NCBI GenBank assembly: GCA_020536535.1
Contig: JAHLWZ010000827.1
Span: forward strand, 35,810 to 99,809
Origin: Pelomyxa schiedti
Taxonomy: Eukaryota > Protista > Evosea
DNA: 64,000 bases
Direction of reading: 5' to 3'
Of this stretch, positions 21,029 through 36,200 are shown in pieces (position 1 is the first letter of the stretch; every line of letters begins with the position of its first letter). The notes beneath the pieces are model-generated. The model did no database searches. It was not told where the DNA came from and saw only the letters and a list, made by a program, of their open reading frames with translations. Position numbers and translations under genes: made by a program.

Positions 21029-21128
21029 NNNNNNNNNNNNNNNNNNNNNNNNNNNNNNNNNNNNNNNNNNNNNNNNNNNNNNNNNNNNNNNNNNNNNNNN
21101 NNNNNNNNNNNNNNNNNNNNNNNNNNNN
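21029..21128. other. Assembly gap (100 N) within the tRNA tandem repeat
   Basis: N run flanked on both sides by sequence matching the 386-bp unit. Confidence 1.
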
Positions 21129-21190
21129 TCAAATGGTAGAACGCTCGCTTAGCATGCGAGAGGCACGGGGATCAATACCCCGCACCTCCA
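21129..21190 (+). tRNA. tRNA-Ala(AGC), second copy, 5' end hidden by the gap
   Basis: Identical to 21515-21576. Confidence 0.9.
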
Positions 21191-21503
21191 CTCTTTTTTT
21201 TGTTTTGTTTTGTTGGGTTTTTCCCCCTTCATTTTCCTCCCTTGTTGTGAGGCTTTCTATCTTCCTCTTGTTCTGGGTTGGTAGCAATGGTTGTGTGGTT
21301 CGCTTCGCTCTCCCACATTTGGGTGGATATGGGCACATGGTGGGCATTTGAAGTTCACATTTGCGAGACACTACCTCTTGTCTTCATGATATTTTGTGAA
21401 TGGCTTTTCTGGAGAAAAAAAAATTAAAAAAAAAATTAAAAGAAAAAAATACACTCCGTGCCCCAGTACACACCAACAGAGGTCTCTAGTGACAACTGTG
21501 GAA

Positions 21504-21576
21504 GGGGGTGTAGTTCAAATGGTAGAACGCTCGCTTAGCATGCGAGAGGCACGGGGATCAATACCCCGCACCTCCA
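21504..21576 (+). tRNA. tRNA-Ala, anticodon AGC
   Basis: Full cloverleaf: acceptor GGGGGTG/CACCTCC with the G3:U70 Ala determinant, D stem GTTC/GAAC, anticodon stem CTCGC/GCGAG with loop TTAGCAT, T stem CGGGG/CCCCG; followed by an oligo-T Pol III terminator. Confidence 0.97.
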
Positions 21577-21668
21577 CTCTTTTTTTTGTTTTGTTTTGTT
21601 GGGTTTTTCCCCCTTCATTTTCCTCCCTTGTTGTGTGGTGCTTTTTTTGCTGCTGGGCTGTTTTATTG

Positions 21669-24600
21669 TTACCCAAATAATGTGTGTATTCTTGTCTGTG
21701 TTACTGGTGTGGTTTTTGTTGTTTTTTTTGTTTCTGGGCCTGGTAGGGTAATTGGAAATGGTAATGGAATTGGTGCTGGATCCTCTTCTTCCTCGACTCC
21801 TTCATCATGCTCTCTTCTCTTGGTGAGACCAAGGCCGGCAAGGTCTTTTACAGCTGGGCATCGCTTCAATCCCTGGGTGTATCATTAGCCTTGATCAATC
21901 TATTGGATATGCCATACATTTAATCTGCCATGTCCACAGTCACAGAAGAAGTGACTGAACTTTGGCAAAGACAAGTGGTGATTATGGTGACATGTTTCTG
22001 CACAAACAGCACAGACACCATATCCTGTGCGCAAGTTGCATGTATAACAGTCGTACCATGGCTGTAGCAAGAAAGTCTTTTGTTCTTAGTTAGTGCTGCG
22101 GGTCTTAGAGTGGTGGGACACCTTGTCACCCGTGGCACTAAATGTACAGGCATTACTGAGGATGCACTTTTCTATGAGTGGGTCCATGGCTATTGCAGTA
22201 GCCAGTTGCAGGTTTCTCAGTGCAACATCGCATGTTTCCCTCACCTAAGGAGAGTGAGGCAATGGGAAATAAAAAAATTTGGCATTACTTCCACATTGGC
22301 ATAATGTTGGGTTGAGGCCCTATTGATAACTTCTGAGGCATTCAGATTATTGAGTGCTTCTCGTACACCCAGGTCACATGAAAGGGACCAAAGCAGAGAT
22401 ACCTTGATGTGAACTGAGATATTTTTTTTGTGGTGAGGTAATTAGGTACTGCCGACTTGACAAAGCCCTTTTCAGCCTTGTACTTATTCAACATTTGGAG
22501 TATCAGGGAAAGGCAATCAACTTCATGGAACAGAATACGATTCTCCCGGAAAAAAGCTAGATGTGTCAGCCTATTCTTGTCAGTAGAGTGACACAGAAGC
22601 ACTTGTTAACTACAAACATTGTCAAACTGGATCCTACTAAGACCTCAGATTCGATATTATTCTTGATGAATCCCATTACAGTTCGCAGGAGCCTTTCTTG
22701 ATTAATTTTCACGATTTCATATAGCGGCTATTACCTTTTTACATCTGTTTCTAACTTTGTTACTTTGATGGTAGATTTAGACGTTATTGACAACGTATAG
22801 TCTACACTCTGAAACTTCACATTGCTTATACAGGCCGAAATGATGATGATATAATGCTTTCCAGGAGGCAGTACTTCGAGATCAACCTCCATTGTAACTA
22901 GGGAAGCTTGGGTATTGGGGGTGTATTCCTTAAGTTGAACCTTCTCGTCGAGGGGTATCAGTTGTGCCACAAACAGTTTCGAGAATGCCAGTGGACTCGT
23001 CGTAAATTACCAGATAAATACCTTGCCTATTGTCCACATCTATTTGTGGAATGTAAAAAAAAAAAAAAAGAGAAGCTGTATGGTGTGTTACCTGCTCCAC
23101 AACTGAAACGCAGGTCTCTCTTTTGGATTGTAATAAACGTGTGGGTAGCTTCAGTTACTTCAAGTTGAATTTGGGGACCATAAACACTATCAGGGTGTGA
23201 GTACTTCCCAAGGATTTTCGTTTGTTGCCATCCCTGTTAGGTGAATGGAAGACGGTTTGGGGTTACTATCGGAAAAAAACCTCAGTTGCTCCAACCATGC
23301 AAATAGTAATCTCCCCAAAGAATTGTTGGAAATCCTCCCAACACATCCAGAAGGCTCCCACATGTTCAGAATATCCAACAATTCGTTTTAGATCAGGAGT
23401 CCATTGTGACGACCCTGCAGACCACCTTCCGCACCAGGTGAAGGATCCCCACTGCTGGGAATAAGTGCTAATTCTCAAAGCTCAACTGTACGGGATTTCG
23501 TAGGAGGAGAAGTTTATTTCCCGCTACATTACGAACGTCCAATATGCCATATGCATGTAAACTTACTATCCCTTCATTTTCAAGCCTCAAGCTTCATAGG
23601 TATTAGTGCTAATTGAAACGTTCCTACAATGTAATACCCAGCATCTTTTTCGGCTTGTGTTTCCTTACGTGAGGAGCAGCCAAATAATTGATTGGCCGCC
23701 TAAGAAAAACAGTGGGTTTTTCCTCTTCTACAGGAGGAACAAGTACCTTGGCTTCCAGCAGTTTAAACCAAAGATTTTCTTGCTGTAACCTGGAAAGCAA
23801 CTTGAAGTTGTACGTAATGCAGGGAGCACCTGGAGCATCGTTATGTGTGAGCTTGAGGATCTTTTTTTTTTCAGGTAAAAACCTGTCAAGTCTCGTAGAC
23901 TTTCGCCAAGGGTTCCAGCTGTAAGTGCTTGGTATGACTTGTTCAGTTTTGCATAACCCTTTTCTAAGTAGCAGACCCAAAGGGATTCGTCTCTTGATCT
24001 AATTTTGCATAATTAGCAGAGATTGAACAACGAGAAAATAGGTTGCCTGGAATAAACAGGACCATGGCCTGCAAGAGATGTTTGCAGCTGTGTTTCGTAA
24101 TCAAGCTGAGAGATTCCAGTAATTGCCGCACATGGAAGGTATCCATCAACTGTTACAGTAACCCATTCATCCCCTCGTAGAAATCTATTTCCCATCAAGT
24201 TATTCTTACTCAGATCTCAGACTATTCATTACCTCAAACCATAAACACCTTGGGGATTGTATTCTGTATTCAGAAATAATCGTAGAACTAGCTCAGGTCG
24301 TGTAGAAATCATGCAGAGAGCACCAAGAAACCAGCAGTCACCAAGCAAACCCTGGGCAATAGAACGTGAATCAATGTCACCTGATTTGGATTATAATGCA
24401 ACCAAAAGCAAAAAAAAAAAGTAAAAGACCTGGAAATAGCTTAGGTGAAACTTTTCTATCGAAAAACTCAACTGGGGTTTTCCAGTGGATTGGGATTTGT
24501 TGTTTTGGTTTGTCATTTGGGTCAATATACAAGGATTTCTAAAGAAAACTCAGGAAACTAAAAAAAAACAAATAGACAAGTCCATACTTCGGAAGGAGGG

Positions 24601-26141
24601 AACTGGGAGTCCAAAAAAGTGAGTCCCCTGGATGAGCACCACGCAATTAGTTCTTGAATGTCTTCAGTAGAAGATGGGGTTGTTGGTGGACTCAACTTCG
24701 AAAAGACTGATAGTTTATGCACAAACCTTGATAAAGATGAGTATTTGGTTTTTTTATAGTGGTACATCATTACGCACTGAGCATCCCAGATACGTGAAAA
24801 GTCCCAGGCAGATTCTATGGCTTTCCACTGGATCTCATATTCCAATTTCCATGGCTTGCCAGAATCGATTGCTGTTAGGTGAAGAATATTTTCTGTCTCT
24901 GGAGAATGGGTGAGTGGGATGAATTTTGAAACTTTACAGACTAGACTTTGCTAGATATCCCTGAAGAAGTATTGGCAGAGTATCAACAGGAGAAGCAAAA
25001 TTGGAAGAAGATTGGGGAGCCAAATTTTCAATATGGTTGACATTCAGAGTGTAGGAAATGGGAAGAATCGACGCAGTGTTGTTATTTGCAAGTTGAAATG
25101 TAACGGAATTTTCAGTGGTCGTTTTGAAAAAATAGATGTTTTCAGTTAAATACTTGGCCTCATCAATGGTTACCTGGAATAAGTTATTTCTCTTTCAGGT
25201 ATGATGGGACATTTACAATTGAAGGACCACCACAAATAACTCCACTATCACTTTTTTTATTGAGATCGCTTTTGTATTCCAGTGCTTGTCTTAGCCTGTC
25301 AAGAAACTTTTTTGAGTACTATTAAATGGTTTTTGCATACCTGGAAATCTGATAGTCGAGTTCCCTTTGGCTTTTTATGTCAGAAATGGCAATTGTGTCT
25401 CTAATATCTCTTGGAGTGAGTGTGACGAGTTTGGCACCATCTACCCCATTCTGAAGAAAGGAAGCTATGTAAGCCTAAACTTTCCTTGGTCATTGGTTGC
25501 TATTTGAAAGGGATTTTAACCTCCTGCCCAACGCTTCTCAGCCACGCTGACACAGTTTCTCGGCTCCATAAATTTGGGGGCTGGGCACCACTTACAGAGG
25601 GTGTTGGAGTTTCATCACTTTGCCTGGATTCGGTAATATTTGGATTCTTGGCAGGTGCAACAGCTGCAGCTGTGTCAGGTCTTCCAGTTGTTTGTTCTAT
25701 CCTTAGCATCTTCTCAGCAATGAGTGTCTCCCTTTCACGTAACTCGGCATCATCTTTCTTCTTCTCCTCCGCTTCCTTCAATTTGTGGAGAGCGTATTCG
25801 AGCTATTGAATAGATACAGTGATTTAGAGCAATGTGAACAACTATGCAGTACCTTTCTTATTTGTGGAAGTGGTAGATCGAGCAGGGACAGTTCCCTTCG
25901 TCCCAATGCCAACAATGTATTCCCATCACCAAGTTTCCCCTTCAAGAACCCACCAGGGTCTGCCAAACCAAAAAAAAAAAAAAAAAAAAAAACGGGCAAA
26001 AATGAATAAAGACCTTGGTTACCAAGCGAAACTAACTCAAAGATCAACCAACGACAAACCTCCGTCGTGTTTCATCGACAAAACTTCACAAGCCCACGCC
26101 ACGACTTGCGCAGCGTTCCATTCCCCAACCGTCGCGCTCAT
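21669..26141 (-). CDS. Multidomain calpain: SAM-SAM, CysPc, domain III (C2-like), ARM-like helices, UBR-type zinc finger
   Basis: FLDSQFPPS; QGLLGDCWFL (Cys 24334-36), LHAYGILD (His 23555-57), LRNP/WG (Asn 23495-97); WVCFFEKAYAK; FWMCWEDF; two SAM-like segments; UBR box CTF..WYDCYTC..GVCAVCAETCHHNH..FFCDCG; all joined by GT-AG introns. Confidence 0.85.
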
Positions 26142-26228
26142 TTTTTCTTGGTGCAAATCGATAGGGCCAAACCAAATCAATCTCTTATCTCCTGTACAGC
26201 AAAAGTGGGATTGCGCTTGACTCTTCTC

Positions 26229-27569
26229 TCACTGCAAGAACACGTGAAGAACGAAAGAGGACATGACGGGGAAGTGGTCAGAAGGAAACCGCGTGCCCTC
26301 GTGGTCAGTTATAATGCAAGCCCGACTTATTCTTTCCACAACGGTTCTGCTTGTTGCTGTTCCGCCTCCGGTTGTTGGTGCTGATGCTGATGATGATGAT
26401 GATGCAGAATCCGCTCGTGGGGTTGATGCCGATGTTGCGGTTGTTTTATTGCTGCTTGCACTGGTACTGCTATCTTCATCATTGGCACTGACAGGGGGGT
26501 CGCGGTACACAACCCAGTCAATGAACTGTGACCCGTCGTTCTCCTGGCGCGAAGAGGGCTCTAGGCTGGGCCTCCAGCCATGGAACGTGGAGAACTTGCA
26601 CCCGTTGTCCTCGCGCCTCTGGGCCTCGGTCCACGTGTCGACGAATCCCTCGGTGCACAGAAAGGGGAACACGGCCTCGCGGGTCTTGATCGTGTTCATG
26701 TCCCCGACCAGTATGTTCACGCAGTCCCGGCATTCCGGCACCTGCAGCATTAACGCGGTTAAGTTGGAATGATGGGAACGGAAAAGGGCAAAGGGAAAGG
26801 GGGAATGAAGCCGTACTTGCTGCATCATCTGTACAACGACTCTCATGCCGTTCTCTCTTGCCAGGGCACTCTTGTGGTCAAGGTGAGTGTTCCAAACACA
26901 GAATCCGGCGGCGGGAACGTGGGAGCGAGGCAAGCCACTGTTGCTGTCCGGCCCCTCAGCTTCAACCGCGTCAAAGCGGGCCCAAGTTACCATCCTAGGC
27001 AAAGCTGATTTCCAGCTGCTGGAACCAGGAACATCAGGAGTCTCAGACAGCCAGAAATCGCCATGTGCCCTCAGAACGACTCTTGAAGGGTCGTGAAATA
27101 TAGCACAGTGTTCATCACCCCCACTCTTGTTCGCAGTCCCAGTCCCATTATTCGGATTCGCAGCCCCAGTCTTGCTCTTACTTTTGTTGTTCTTGTTCTT
27201 GTTGGCGTTTTTGCCGTCGGCCTTTGTTGTGGGTGGTGCCGCTGCTGCCGTCGTCCCACAATTTGGTAGCAGACGGCACACTGGGGGCAAAGCGAACCAC
27301 GAGTCGCCGCGGCGGTCGCGTCCCACCGGTGGGCCAGGGTAGAGGTCGCCCAGTCTGGTGGATATGCACCTGAGCTGGGAGGGCAGGCCCTCCTGGACAC
27401 ACAGCACGGCGGGCCTGTGCCTCCTCAGGAGGGCCAGCGCCACGTCGCATCTGTTGCCGGGCTCGAACCACGCGTTTTCGCCGTCCGCTGCGTTGGCGTA
27501 CCTCAGGTTGAACGTCATCACGCTCACCTCCGCCGCGGCGCTACTTATGGGTGTCGCGGCCGCACTCAT
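26229..27569 (-). CDS. Endonuclease/exonuclease/phosphatase (EEP) family metal-dependent hydrolase
   Basis: VMTFNLRY, LCVQEG, FWLSETPDVPGS.SW, NTHLDH, GDMN, IDWV, PSDHFPV; probably one in-frame intron near 26743-26816. Confidence 0.9.
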   Translation of the reverse strand: MSAAATPISSAAAEVSVMTFNLRYANAADGENAWFEPGNRCDVALALLRRHRPAVLCVQEGLPSQLRCISTRLGDLYPGPPVGRDRRGDSWFALPPVCRLLPNCGTTAAAAPPTTKADGKNANKNKNNKSKSKTGAANPNNGTGTANKSGGDEHCAIFHDPSRVVLRAHGDFWLSETPDVPGSSSWKSALPRMVTWARFDAVEAEGPDSNSGLPRSHVPAAGFCVWNTHLDHKSALARENGMRVVVQMMQQVRLHSPFPFALFRSHHSNLTALMLQVPECRDCVNILVGDMNTIKTREAVFPFLCTEGFVDTWTEAQRREDNGCKFSTFHGWRPSLEPSSRQENDGSQFIDWVVYRDPPVSANDEDSSTSASSNKTTATSASTPRADSASSSSSASAPTTGGGTATSRTVVERISRACIITDHEGTRFPSDHFPVMSSFVLHVFLQ

Positions 27570-27740
27570 TCGCTTCGATTTCGGTTTTTGGTCAAGTTCC
27601 TTTTGGAAAGTCGCATTGAAATGCTGAAATAGAGTTTCAACTGTCGAAGTGAGAAGGGTGCGTTATAGCTGAATTGTAGAAGTGTTTATTTTACTGTACT
27701 CACATTAGAGATTTGGATGTTGTTGCCAACTTGCAGGATT

Positions 27741-33200: not shown

Positions 33201-36200
33201 CTATTTTCCTATGAGAAAGAAGAAGCGATAAACATGCTACACAAAACAAAAAGAGGGATTGATTGTCAGCTACACACATGGTACAGCTGGATGCGGTGGT
33301 GTACGACGGTCCCTCAACATCACCTTCAAATGTTCTCCTGGAAGTGGCATAGGGTACCCGACTCCTCCACCAATCAATTACATTGAAGGACCTCCTTGTC
33401 AATACAATCTTGTTTGGGAAACTGAATATGGAGTACTTAATTGTTGTGCTTTCAATGGAACACTTAAACCATTTAGTGCCCAATTTGCTCTTCTGTGCAT
33501 TATTCTTATTATATAACTGCCTGTGAGGACAACCAACGCCAGAAAGTTTACTACTGGTTGGAAAACCCCAAGAGGTGTCATGACGGTGTATCACTTCCTG
33601 CAACTGAAACAATTTACGTCAATTGCTGTAAGTTGTCGTACACCTTTTTGCATTTTAATCCATTCTAGCCTCAACAACCACTTGTAACCCTGGGAACTAT
33701 GCTCTTGAAACAGGAGGGTGTGAACAATGTGATGCAGGAACCTATAGCGTTGGGCCAGGGAATACTTATTTCGAATTTACTAGTGTGCCTTCGGACTTTA
33801 CTTCTTCCTGCACTGGGACTAATTGCAAAGGTTCTGTCATTCAATTAGTCAACAAAATGTGATTTGTGTAGGGTTTGTGGCACAAGGAGGAATACTTGTA
33901 TCAACTACAGGGACCTCACTAATGGAATTCACCTCCCAGTTCTTAATGGAAGGCTCCGTTACATTTGCTTACCAAGTGTTTGCAAATGGTTTATCGGTAA
34001 TTCCTTTTATTATTGTTCTTTATTTAGTCTTTTGTTCTCCCACAAAGTCGGGTGATGGCTCTGGCATTTTCGAGTTTTCTATTGATCAAGCAATTGTTTT
34101 GTCTGTGAAGCAAACCGTATTTGATTACCGAGAATTTACTGCAGTTTTACCTGTAAAGTCCCATCTTGAAAATTCTAAATTAATAGTGTATTAATTCCTT
34201 TTTTGCCAGGTTGGCCCACATATCCTCTCTTGGAAGTTCACTGGTGGTGCAACATCGTCACTTAAGTATGTCTCTTTTTTCCATTGTCAATAACCAATAG
34301 TTCATTCTAGTGATAATACACTGTCATCCATGGCAATAGCATCAATAACCGTAATTGGGACAGAGTACTCTCCACTCGTTTGCACCCCCTGCCATTCTGG
34401 GCAGCACCAGAGTTTGAAGGGGCAAACTGAATGTGAGATATGCCCATCTGATACTTACGCCGCTGGAGGAGCCGCTGAGTGCTCGTATGTGACACAAAAA
34501 CAATTTTCCCCATGTTAACTCTCTTCAAAGGCCCTGCAGTGATGACATGTACAGCTTCCCTGATTCTGCCACATGTGAAGCGAAATCGATTTGCAATTCT
34601 ACAGACTACCAGTCTTATTACTCTGCGTGCAGTACAGATGGGACTAGGTCAAAATACTGGGTTCCTCTTGAACCAGCAACTTGTGTATGTTATATTTTTC
34701 CTCTGTTCTCTAATCTGTTACAGGTAAACGGTTATTCTCCACCGGCGACCCAAACTGGACTGGCATGCGCACAATGCCCAGATGGCATGTATCGTCCAGA
34801 AGGTGAGGCGGATTGTGTTGGGTGTAGAGCTGGTACATATTTTGATGGTAAGTTATTGTTTCAGAAATACCCTACTCAATGCGTTTGAAAAGGTGCTTCG
34901 TGTGTGTCTGCCGAATCTGGTTCATATGTCCTATACTCTAGAGAATATTTTGTAGACCAAGAACAAGAAGAACTTCTGCCCTCTGGCTGGAGTACTACCT
35001 GCTATGGGCATTGTGGCTCAAGGTTACTTCTTCTCCTCTGGGTATATTTGCTTACTTCTGAAGTGGCTGGCAAGTGATGTCTGGCTATGTGTCCTCTGGG
35101 CGTCACTTAGCCCAATATTCTGTAATGTCAGTTCTCTCCTACATAGGCACAGTGAGTTTCCTTTCTTGAAAATTTTGGTTATTCCTTTGCTTACATAACC
35201 TTTTGTAGTTTGTTACAGAGGGAACAGTTTCATTTGAGTTCTTGCGTGACTTTTCTGATTCTGCACATGGCCTTCAGTTCTTTGTTAACAATATACGCAT
35301 GGACCTTCCAACAGGTACCCTTGAAAATCTCAGTTTCACAATTAACGACAACAAGGCAACTCCAGAACGGATACAGCTTCCTTCAGTGTAGCAGCTGGGG
35401 AAAATGAGCTGGATTGGGTCTACATTCAAAACCCATCCACATCCTCTGGCAAGGTTCAAATTCCACAATTCGTGGGTTGTGGCCACTTCTTTTGTGAACC
35501 GTTCTTTCTAGGTATCCATTTCTGACGTAATCATTTCTGGTATCTCTACTGGTTCGTCATCTGTAGAGGAATGTCCAGCCGGAACTTACAGCGGGGGTGC
35601 TGCTGTAAGTTGTACCCGCTGCCCCCCTGGCCAGTACTCTTCTGCACCTAATTCTCAAACAGTGTGCCCCTTACATTTTCACCTAATACTGAACAACTCT
35701 CAGTGCACAGCGTGCTCTGAAAATTTCTATGCTCCCTATTCTGGTTCTACTTCCTGCACACCCTGTCCAACAGGGACATATGCTCCCGACCAAGGATCTA
35801 CAAAATGTGAAACGTCTTGCGTCTTTGTGGCCCGGGATGGTGAGCGCACATTCACATTTAACCTTACGGAACTAAAGTAAGTTCACGTACTTCCCTATTA
35901 ATCTTTTTGACATACAAATAGAAAAACAGTTGGTCCTGTTGTGGATGAAGACAATTCCATGTACCTAATAAATGTCTGTGACTGGAACATTTCCAGTACA
36001 CTGTGTGTTGATGCAGATGGCTCTCCAATTTTGACACATGTATGTGAGCGAGGAATAACAGAGGAAGCTGCCTATAGCTTTGGATCATTACTTGAATTTT
36101 CTGCTTTGTCTGGGGGTATTTGATCTTTCCCTGCACCATTTCTCACAATAAAAAGATGAAAGCAGTGGCTTCCAACTTTCCTTCTATGGTGGTGACACCT

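Follow-up and report, generated by a model that had tools for sequence, protein, structure and literature searches.

A calpain from Pelomyxa schiedti with SAM domains, armadillo repeats, and a UBR4-type UBR box

Can a single protein both recognize a target by its N-terminus and cut it? In reviews, UBR boxes are described on ubiquitin ligases, and calpains are described as feeding the N-degron pathway from outside. A gene from the protist Pelomyxa schiedti raises the question, as it encodes a calpain with a UBR box. It lies in the 64,000-nt stretch of DNA that we analyzed (the window; positions 35,810 to 99,809 of contig JAHLWZ010000827.1, assembly GCA_020536535.1), and all coordinates below are positions within the window. 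An earlier note, made from the DNA sequence alone, had proposed a single fused calpain gene at 21669–26141. We found that the calpain-UBR fusion is real and is one gene. It belongs to a conserved calpain subfamily that is apparently undescribed and whose UBR4-type pocket appears to be intact. Because the peptide pocket is conserved, binding of N-termini by the Pelomyxa UBR box is plausible.

The calpain and the UBR box are encoded by one gene

From the three reading frames of the minus strand, we derived a model with 25 exons and 24 introns that runs from the ATG at 26141 to the TAA at 21669. The spliced model is 3303 nt and encodes 1100 amino acids, with zero internal stops. Apart from the first intron (100 nt), the introns are 40–53 nt long, with a median of 47. 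A search with the UBR exon identified KAH3756321.1 (“calpain-15” from Pelomyxa schiedti), which matches our model at all 1100 residues, so the fusion is already in the NCBI gene set, under a generic name only.

21669..26141, minus strand: whole gene; 25-exon model, 1100 amino acids, identical to KAH3756321.1
22693..22734, minus strand: 42-nt intron whose splicing takes out the stop codon at 22731; supported by an RNA joint (22691/22734) in both X1 and X2

Four sequencing runs contain the stretch. All are from one study; three are RNA from one sample and one is of unspecified kind. A 1412-nt contig (X1 record 1) spans 21712–23575 and shows nine joints directly, at CT..AC ends, while a tenth joint (23091–23040) sits at a skipped repeat. 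The model’s spliced length over this span is also exactly 1412 nt, which supports all ten introns. This contig links, in spliced form, the exon with the catalytic residues H623 and N643, the CBSW domain, the armadillo (ARM) repeats, and the UBR box.

The earlier note had also placed the stop codon at 22731 within an intron. This is correct, but the intron is not the 36-nt GTAACA..TAATAG intron that was suggested, which preserves the frame by chance. The RNA shows a 42-nt intron instead (22734–22693, GTAATA..GAAAG), and the X1 transcript continues, spliced, past 22730 into the UBR exons. Downstream, there are five introns of 44–47 nt, rather than four of 32–47 nt.

No RNA contigs were found over 23576–24136 or 24659–26141, hence none over the SAM (sterile alpha motif) half of the gene. 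The exons around the catalytic cysteine are covered by X1 record 2, which is noisy at two joints. Introns 1–7 and 11–14 are outside the RNA cover and are concordant with the NCBI model; if intron 7 (24777–24727) were retained, the frame would stay open. As no RNA contig crosses the join between the SAM domains and the protease, the evidence for it comes from the NCBI model and from relatives (P0005, P0163, P0164, and P0105, described below). One intron, at 24046–23999 on the minus strand, has GC-AG ends (AG/GCAACC). Removing it restores the PVYSRSRD stretch of the protease; it is in the NCBI-identical model and outside the RNA cover.

Could the fusion be a gene-prediction artefact, or could the SAM exons be a separate gene? 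Rawlings 2015 (PMC4631099) warns of such artefacts for rare calpain architectures, and here the RNA contigs have the gaps just described and come from one sample. Against this, the His/Asn exon and the UBR box lie on the same spliced 1412-nt contig, whose length is exactly that of the model, and three unrelated full-length entries have the same domain order in one frame. A locus from another genome (L002) is likewise ordered, and the transcript of the upstream gene stops about 40 nt before the ATG. We consider an artefact highly improbable, and this explanation is already largely refuted.

Domain order and the UBR4-type box

The order of domains in the protein is SAM-SAM-beta sandwich-CysPc-CBSW-three ARM repeats-UBR4-type box. 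All of these are on the minus strand:

25770..26126, minus strand: SAM domain 1, divergent (aa 6–74), then a long helix to aa 101; family profile, helix pattern
25286..25574, minus strand: SAM domain 2 (aa 140–205); Pfam SAM_1 E 1e-8, fold match
24810..25173, minus strand: beta-sandwich domain (aa 229–335); all-beta model, predicted local distance difference test (pLDDT) mostly 74–87, conserved in 5 relatives
23299..24617, minus strand: CysPc core (aa 383–695); Pfam E 5e-69, calpain-9 fold match
24334–24336, 23555–23557, and 23495–23497, minus strand: catalytic residues C444, H623, and N643; from the sequence
22746..23286, minus strand: CBSW or C2-like domain III, SOL-like (aa 700–832); Foldseek, hhalign
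22197..22736, minus strand: about three ARM repeats (aa 836–955), with invariant W906, R915, E939, E942, and R949; profile, fold, conservation
21858..22166, minus strand: UBR4-type UBR box (aa 966–1038); Pfam zf-UBR, ungapped UBR4 match
21672..21857, minus strand: charged, proline-rich tail (aa 1039–1100); pLDDT below 50, low conservation

Pfam finds three of the expected families above their curated cut-offs: Peptidase_C2 (383–695, E 5e-69), SAM_1 (141–204, E 1e-8), and zf-UBR (980–1031, E 3e-8). A fourth that had been expected, Calpain_III, gave no match, and domain III was instead identified by its fold and by profile comparison. A model that AlphaFold2 built on a 36-row alignment (pLDDT 77.4, predicted template modeling score 0.72) has two helical SAM-like units, a sandwich (about 217–332), CysPc, a second sandwich (700–832), and helical repeats (834–955). 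Folding the single sequence gave a pLDDT of only 36.6.

The UBR box contains eleven Cys and His residues (C972, C990, C993, C1002, C1005, C1009, H1010, H1013, C1025, C1027, and C1038), all of which are conserved in the complete members of the family. The zinc ligands are of the Cys7/Cys2His2 type, with a Cys that replaces the His of UBR1/2, as in subfamily 2 of UBR boxes. Judging by its position, C1038 is probably the equivalent of C1724 in UBR4. The best match among solved structures is human UBR4 (1671–1717, ungapped, E 3.5e-15), followed by FBXO11 (E 1e-8) and UBR2 (E 0.9). Together with the Pfam hit, this agrees with the UBR4-like box of the earlier note.

The box of UBR4 binds N-terminal Tyr or Trp (dissociation constant, Kd, of about 18–21 micromolar) and Arg (44 micromolar) (PMC10687169). 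In UBR4, F1671 and F1713 bind the N-terminal residue, D1715 holds the amino group, and K1708 selects the residue at position 2; F1671 is found only in UBR4 among the human UBR boxes and is required for binding YEFS and REFS (PMC10687169). The equivalents in the Pelomyxa protein are F982 (F1671), K1019 (K1708), F1024 (F1713), and D1026 (D1715). We aligned nine boxes from the family, excluding P0003/P0004 (read-through intron), and all eight complete boxes have the F/Y-F/Y-D + K pocket. UBR4-type boxes prefer N-terminal Tyr, Trp, or Phe over Arg or His and reject Lys at position 2 (PMC10687169), so the Arg/Lys peptides that were first suggested for a binding assay would be ill-chosen.

UBR4-type boxes also occur in tandem on the unrelated proteins P0006, P0016, and P0099, which have 20, 14, and 5 of them (P0099 has a RING domain as well), many with altered pocket residues. 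In unrelated repeat proteins, the equivalent of K1708 is present in just 3 of 38 boxes.

A conserved family of relatives

A HMMER scan of 1.84 billion representative sequences gave 11481 matches, and we ran Pfam on the 149 non-self rows among the best 150 (at E 0.01 or E 0.001, depending on the batch; for some rows, the best five families each). Within these best 150 of 11481 matches, both Peptidase_C2 and zf-UBR were found in 5 of the 149 rows, and SAM with Peptidase_C2 in one. In three of these five (P0005, P0007, and P0011), the UBR box is C-terminal. A profile search, with 3 matches among 6034 candidates (one being the Pelomyxa protein), added the full-length proteins P0163 and P0164. Over about 1000 residues, P0005, P0163, and P0164 are 33–36% identical to the Pelomyxa protein and 42–47% identical to each other, and they share its order of SAM2, sandwich, CysPc, CBSW, ARM, and UBR. 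The fragments P0105, P0008, P0013, P0018, P0002, and P0003 also fit the family.

Across the four full-length members, conservation is highest in the UBR box (63–81% pairwise identity, with 53% of positions invariant). The other domains are at 43–64% (CysPc, 31% invariant), 33–49% (CBSW), 26–50% (ARM), and 29–39% (SAM2). The segment just before the box, aa 956–971, is nearly as conserved as the box.

In metagenome contigs, 87 pattern matches included 4 that encode relatives. One of these loci, L002, encodes CysPc and then UBR in order, with short introns, in another intron-rich genome. Scans that need exact short patterns found relatives at 0 of 84 matches in viral contigs and 0 of 27 in prokaryote genomes. 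A word-indexed search with aa 880–1045 gave 187 candidates and found only the query itself; as relatives exist, this search under-counts.

In a tree of CysPc domains, with a midpoint root and with matches to the Pelomyxa protein as the only sample, the four full-length members form one branch (support of 1.0 with 138 rows, and 100/99 in a 29-row subset). This branch lies outside the SOL clade, whose 50 rows include all 39 rows of zinc-finger SOL calpains.

The search also turned up other calpain architectures: WWE-CysPc (P0146), cofilin-CysPc (P0098/P0102), PH-CysPc (P0086), CysPc-SH3 (P0152), and CysPc-ankyrin (P0149). These five are outside the table of Zhao 2012 and the consulted section of Rawlings 2015.

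A second group of calpains with a UBR box

P0162/P0015, P0029, and P0033 are about 2000 amino acids long. They have some 20 hydrophobic segments, and their UBR4-type box immediately precedes CysPc. P0034 has a degenerate UBR4-type box that is further upstream of CysPc. On the CysPc tree, P0162/P0015, P0029, and P0033 fall with the DEK1-like membrane calpains. Placing the membrane UBR-calpains and the SAM-ARM family in one clade was rejected (p = 0.015 in the approximately unbiased test, 29 rows). This suggests that calpains picked up the UBR box twice. Alternatively, the box may have been retained through rearrangement.

Like the Pelomyxa protein, these membrane calpains have a UBR4-type box with F-F/Y-D (in 3/3 complete boxes) and an intact calpain. 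Unlike it, they have about 20 transmembrane segments, a box that is N-terminal to CysPc and lacks the equivalent of K1708, no SAM or ARM domains according to Pfam, and a CysPc of a separate lineage. The term “UBR” does not appear in the consulted parts of a 2023 review of membrane calpains.

The protease core and its calcium sites

The match to Peptidase_C2 (233 bits) is far above the curated cut-off of 23.8, and the modeled core matches the fold of calpain-9 (Z 33.1, root-mean-square deviation (rmsd) 3.0 over 303 residues). The catalytic triad was said to be intact and indeed C444, H623, and N643 are present; the triad is kept in 4/4 full-length family members. The protein was also described as an EF-hand-less calpain, and Pfam finds no EF hands at E 0.1: the ARM repeats and the UBR box occupy that place. 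The CBSW domain matches the C2-like domain of calpain-7 (2qfe, Foldseek E 2e-4) and the first tail domain of the zinc-finger SOL calpains (93.6% by hhalign).

We mapped the calcium sites by their offsets from the catalytic residues and compared them with the calpain-9 alignment. The offsets, and D321 as a calcium ligand, are our assumptions. The core ligands of rat calpain-2 are D96, E175, E292, D299, and E323 (PMC4631099). In the Pelomyxa protein, the calcium-site positions are S435, T649, A656, V675, and A677, and only the equivalent of E175 (E536) is kept. The equivalent of D96 is Asp in 1 of 4 family members, versus 130 of 134 other calpains. The equivalent of E292 is Glu in none of the four members (it is rare in SOL-type rows too), and the equivalent of D321 is not Asp or Glu in any of them. 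The equivalent of D299 is kept in 3 of 4 and is lost in Pelomyxa. Because of the eroded acids and the lack of EF hands, control by calcium is probably weak or different.

SAM domains, beta sandwich, and ARM repeats

The two SAM segments of the earlier note have both held up, though the first has no Pfam match. SAM2 has the fold of the Hyphen/Aveugle SAM (Z 13.0, rmsd 1.1 over 73 residues). SAM1 scores 23.6 bits against a profile of SAM2 from four relatives; none of 1000 shuffled sequences reached this (the top shuffle scored 7.2), and the model has a five-helix pattern with pLDDT 52–78. In P0105, the corresponding segment scores 1.7 bits, with 114 of 1000 shuffles as high. It aligns directly to aa 43–98 of the Pelomyxa protein at 39% identity, which is partly the helix after the SAM domain. 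As P0005, P0163, and P0164 start too late, a second SAM domain is established for Pelomyxa only.

By hhalign, the beta sandwich matches a group of domains that precede CysPc in protist calpains (77.7%), and this group matches the SOL tail (91.5%); the direct comparison gives 0.3%. Thus, the sandwich is probably related to the domain that other protist calpains have ahead of CysPc and, by way of that domain, to the C-terminal SOL domain. P0021, P0031, P0050, P0064, P0089, P0103, and many other protist calpains have two SOL-tail-like sandwiches, one ahead of CysPc and one C-terminal. This double sandwich may connect the DUF1935-type and SOL-homology domains. The ESM Atlas gave no usable match for aa 215–345 or for aa 700–1045.

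The ARM-like helices that had been noticed in the sequence are ARM repeats by profile (APC, E 2e-7) and by fold (beta-catenin, Z 16.6, rmsd 1.8 over 123 residues). An apparent link to ZYG11B/ZER1 (E 0.002) was dropped because other ARM proteins score better with an ARM-only profile: ZYG11B/ZER1 are at E 2e-4 to 7e-4, behind Toxoplasma GAC-type proteins, APC, Vac8, and plakophilin. The tail (aa 1039–1100) is probably disordered, judging by the model. Pfam finds no ligase domains (RING, HECT, hemi-RING, or F-box) at E 0.1, and all folded parts are otherwise assigned. The parts that the earlier note listed are present, but it overlooked the beta sandwich, the relatives, and the eroded calcium sites.

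How the UBR box might serve the protease

CAPN15 binds ubiquitinated E-cadherin via its zinc fingers and cleaves only the tagged form (PMC12805371). Given this precedent, in which the reader binds and the enzyme then cuts, we tentatively favor a similar sequence of events for the Pelomyxa protein: it may be a soluble, non-classical calpain that acts as an N-terminus-guided limited protease. The target would likely be chosen by its N-terminus rather than by a ubiquitin tag.

We infer the following functional steps. The UBR box would dock proteins whose first residue is aromatic or Arg, and docking would bring the substrate to the active site for limited cleavage. The box would bind free N-termini as UBR4’s does, at tens of micromolar at best. 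The ARM repeats would hold the box beside the protease and help to grip or present the substrate. Contacts between SAM domains would cluster several enzymes, and avidity would offset the weak affinity. Finally, engagement of the substrate would replace, wholly or in part, the calcium switch of classical calpains. The strong conservation of the UBR box relative to the other domains, the retention of the pocket (8/8) and of the triad (4/4), the SOL-like CBSW, the second lineage with a UBR box, and the catalogued fungal calpain-ZZ fusions all seem to support this proposal.

The CAPN15/SOL calpains are like the Pelomyxa protein in several ways: they are non-classical, lack EF hands and the E292-type ligand, and have a zinc-binding reader. 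The Pelomyxa protein also has the SOL-like CBSW domain and bears the NCBI name calpain-15. But the reader in CAPN15/SOL is a set of N-terminal ubiquitin-binding fingers, while in Pelomyxa it would be the C-terminal UBR box. The Pelomyxa protein has no RanBP/NZF fingers (no match to PF00641), with SAM domains and ARM repeats instead. As for the SOL-homology region, the first tail domain is matched; the second does not follow CBSW, and the two-step link alone points to a possible distant copy ahead of CysPc. Compared with UBR4/p600/BIG, the box has the same Cys7-type ligands, 47 ungapped residues, and the same four pocket residues, but it is on an 1100-residue protease without a hemi-RING, DOC, beta-propeller, or other ligase part.

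Several observations weigh against a box that selects substrates. The aromatic-aromatic-Asp triad is only partly diagnostic, because unrelated repeat proteins have it too, in 16 of their 25 complete boxes (mostly with Tyr first). The high identity of a small zinc domain is partly due to its eleven metal ligands. The UBR box has pLDDT below 50, and the model does not fix its placement relative to the active site. The UBR4 box itself binds weakly (Kd of 18–626 micromolar). In the structure of the full UBR4 complex, the box is empty and contacts DOC1 and KCMF1, and deleting it left the ubiquitination of tested substrates unimpaired (PMC12286842, bioRxiv 2024.12.18.629163). Lastly, some of these site-2 acids (E292 type) are missing from CAPN15 as well, yet calcium stimulates it (PMC12805371), so the erosion of the calcium sites is a hint only.

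The findings for UBR4, whose box packs on DOC1 and KCMF1 and is not required for the tested N-Arg and presequence substrates, also suggest another role. The box could be a zinc-stabilized docking module for a fixed partner or for the protein’s own domains, and the enzyme an ordinary non-classical calpain that is targeted by a scaffold. UBR4-type boxes are repeated on unrelated proteins (P0006, P0016, and P0099), so they are mobile modules, and the segment at aa 956–971 is conserved in the way that an interface might be. However, both pocket aromatics, D1026, and K1019 are kept in all eight complete members, with F/Y exchange only, and we consider simple docking rather unlikely.

Or the order of events could be reversed, as the heading of the earlier note (“cut and read”) implies. 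Calpains generate N-degrons (PMC8346999), and the box could bind the new N-terminus of a product or of an autolysis fragment, so as to retain it, pass it along, or protect it from ligases; it could also sense peptides as an allosteric switch, and the eroded calcium acids leave room for one. But Pfam shows no ligase, ubiquitin-binding, or E2-binding domain that could receive a product, and CAPN15, the reader-calpain that has been studied, reads before it cuts. This seems unlikely to us, slightly more so than docking.

If N-terminus-guided cleavage by the Pelomyxa calpain is correct, then recognition of the N-terminus is coupled directly to proteolysis on one chain, without ubiquitin or the proteasome. 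The family would offer a system for asking what UBR4-type boxes do, given that UBR4’s own is dispensable for the tested substrates, and a natural template for proteases that select by N-terminus. Direct tests are feasible because the enzyme is soluble and about 120 kDa, with single-residue handles (C444, F982, and D1026).

A broader speculation is that, in eukaryotes, one branch of the N-end rule works without ubiquitin: a single enzyme reads an aromatic or Arg N-terminus with a UBR4-type box, cuts the protein, is switched by its substrate rather than by calcium, and can relay on its own products. It would have arisen by at least two gains of UBR boxes, and perhaps a third of ZZ. We view this as somewhat unlikely.

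The possible third case is from Piriformospora indica, whose calpain-ZZ fusions (pC2~ZZ x2) are catalogued as an architecture, with a warning about gene-model errors (PMC4631099). ZZ domains read N-degrons (PMC12286842, bioRxiv 2024.12.18.629163), so this is, as in Pelomyxa, CysPc followed by a zinc domain of an N-degron-reading class, although the domain is ZZ and not UBR. Here we compared the listed architecture only.

The published record

The combination of domains, which the earlier note did not recall among described calpains, is absent from the portions of the calpain surveys that we searched. The 24 partner domains of calpains in Zhao et al. 2012 (PMC3563603) do not include SAM, ARM, or UBR, as far as the sections covered go, and the searched portions of Rawlings 2015 (PMC4631099) list no calpain with any of these. 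“UBR” does not occur in the searched parts of PMC10762896 and PMC13413365. A literature search, with most subscription papers outside its coverage, found no combination of calpain CysPc with a sterile alpha motif, two DEK1 papers that pair calpain CysPc with the term N-recognin, and, by title or start of abstract, no report of a fusion like this one.

Neighboring genes

The transcript of the upstream gene ends at about 26182–26187, roughly 40 nt before the calpain’s ATG, so the calpain promoter probably overlaps the 3' end of that gene. The upstream open frame (26229–27662, minus strand) is, by eye, a candidate endonuclease/exonuclease/phosphatase-like protein. At 26215–26370, in the 3' end of the upstream gene, contigs from X1 and X3 differ from the window by six mismatches and one insertion, which probably reflect another allele or cell line. 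On the other side, a tRNA-Ala(AGC) gene (21504–21577, plus strand) is convergent with the 3' end of the calpain gene. A near-copy of the tRNA stretch, at about 21129–21250, runs into a gap of Ns (21029–21128); it is a tandem repeat of the tRNA or else a duplication introduced by the assembly.

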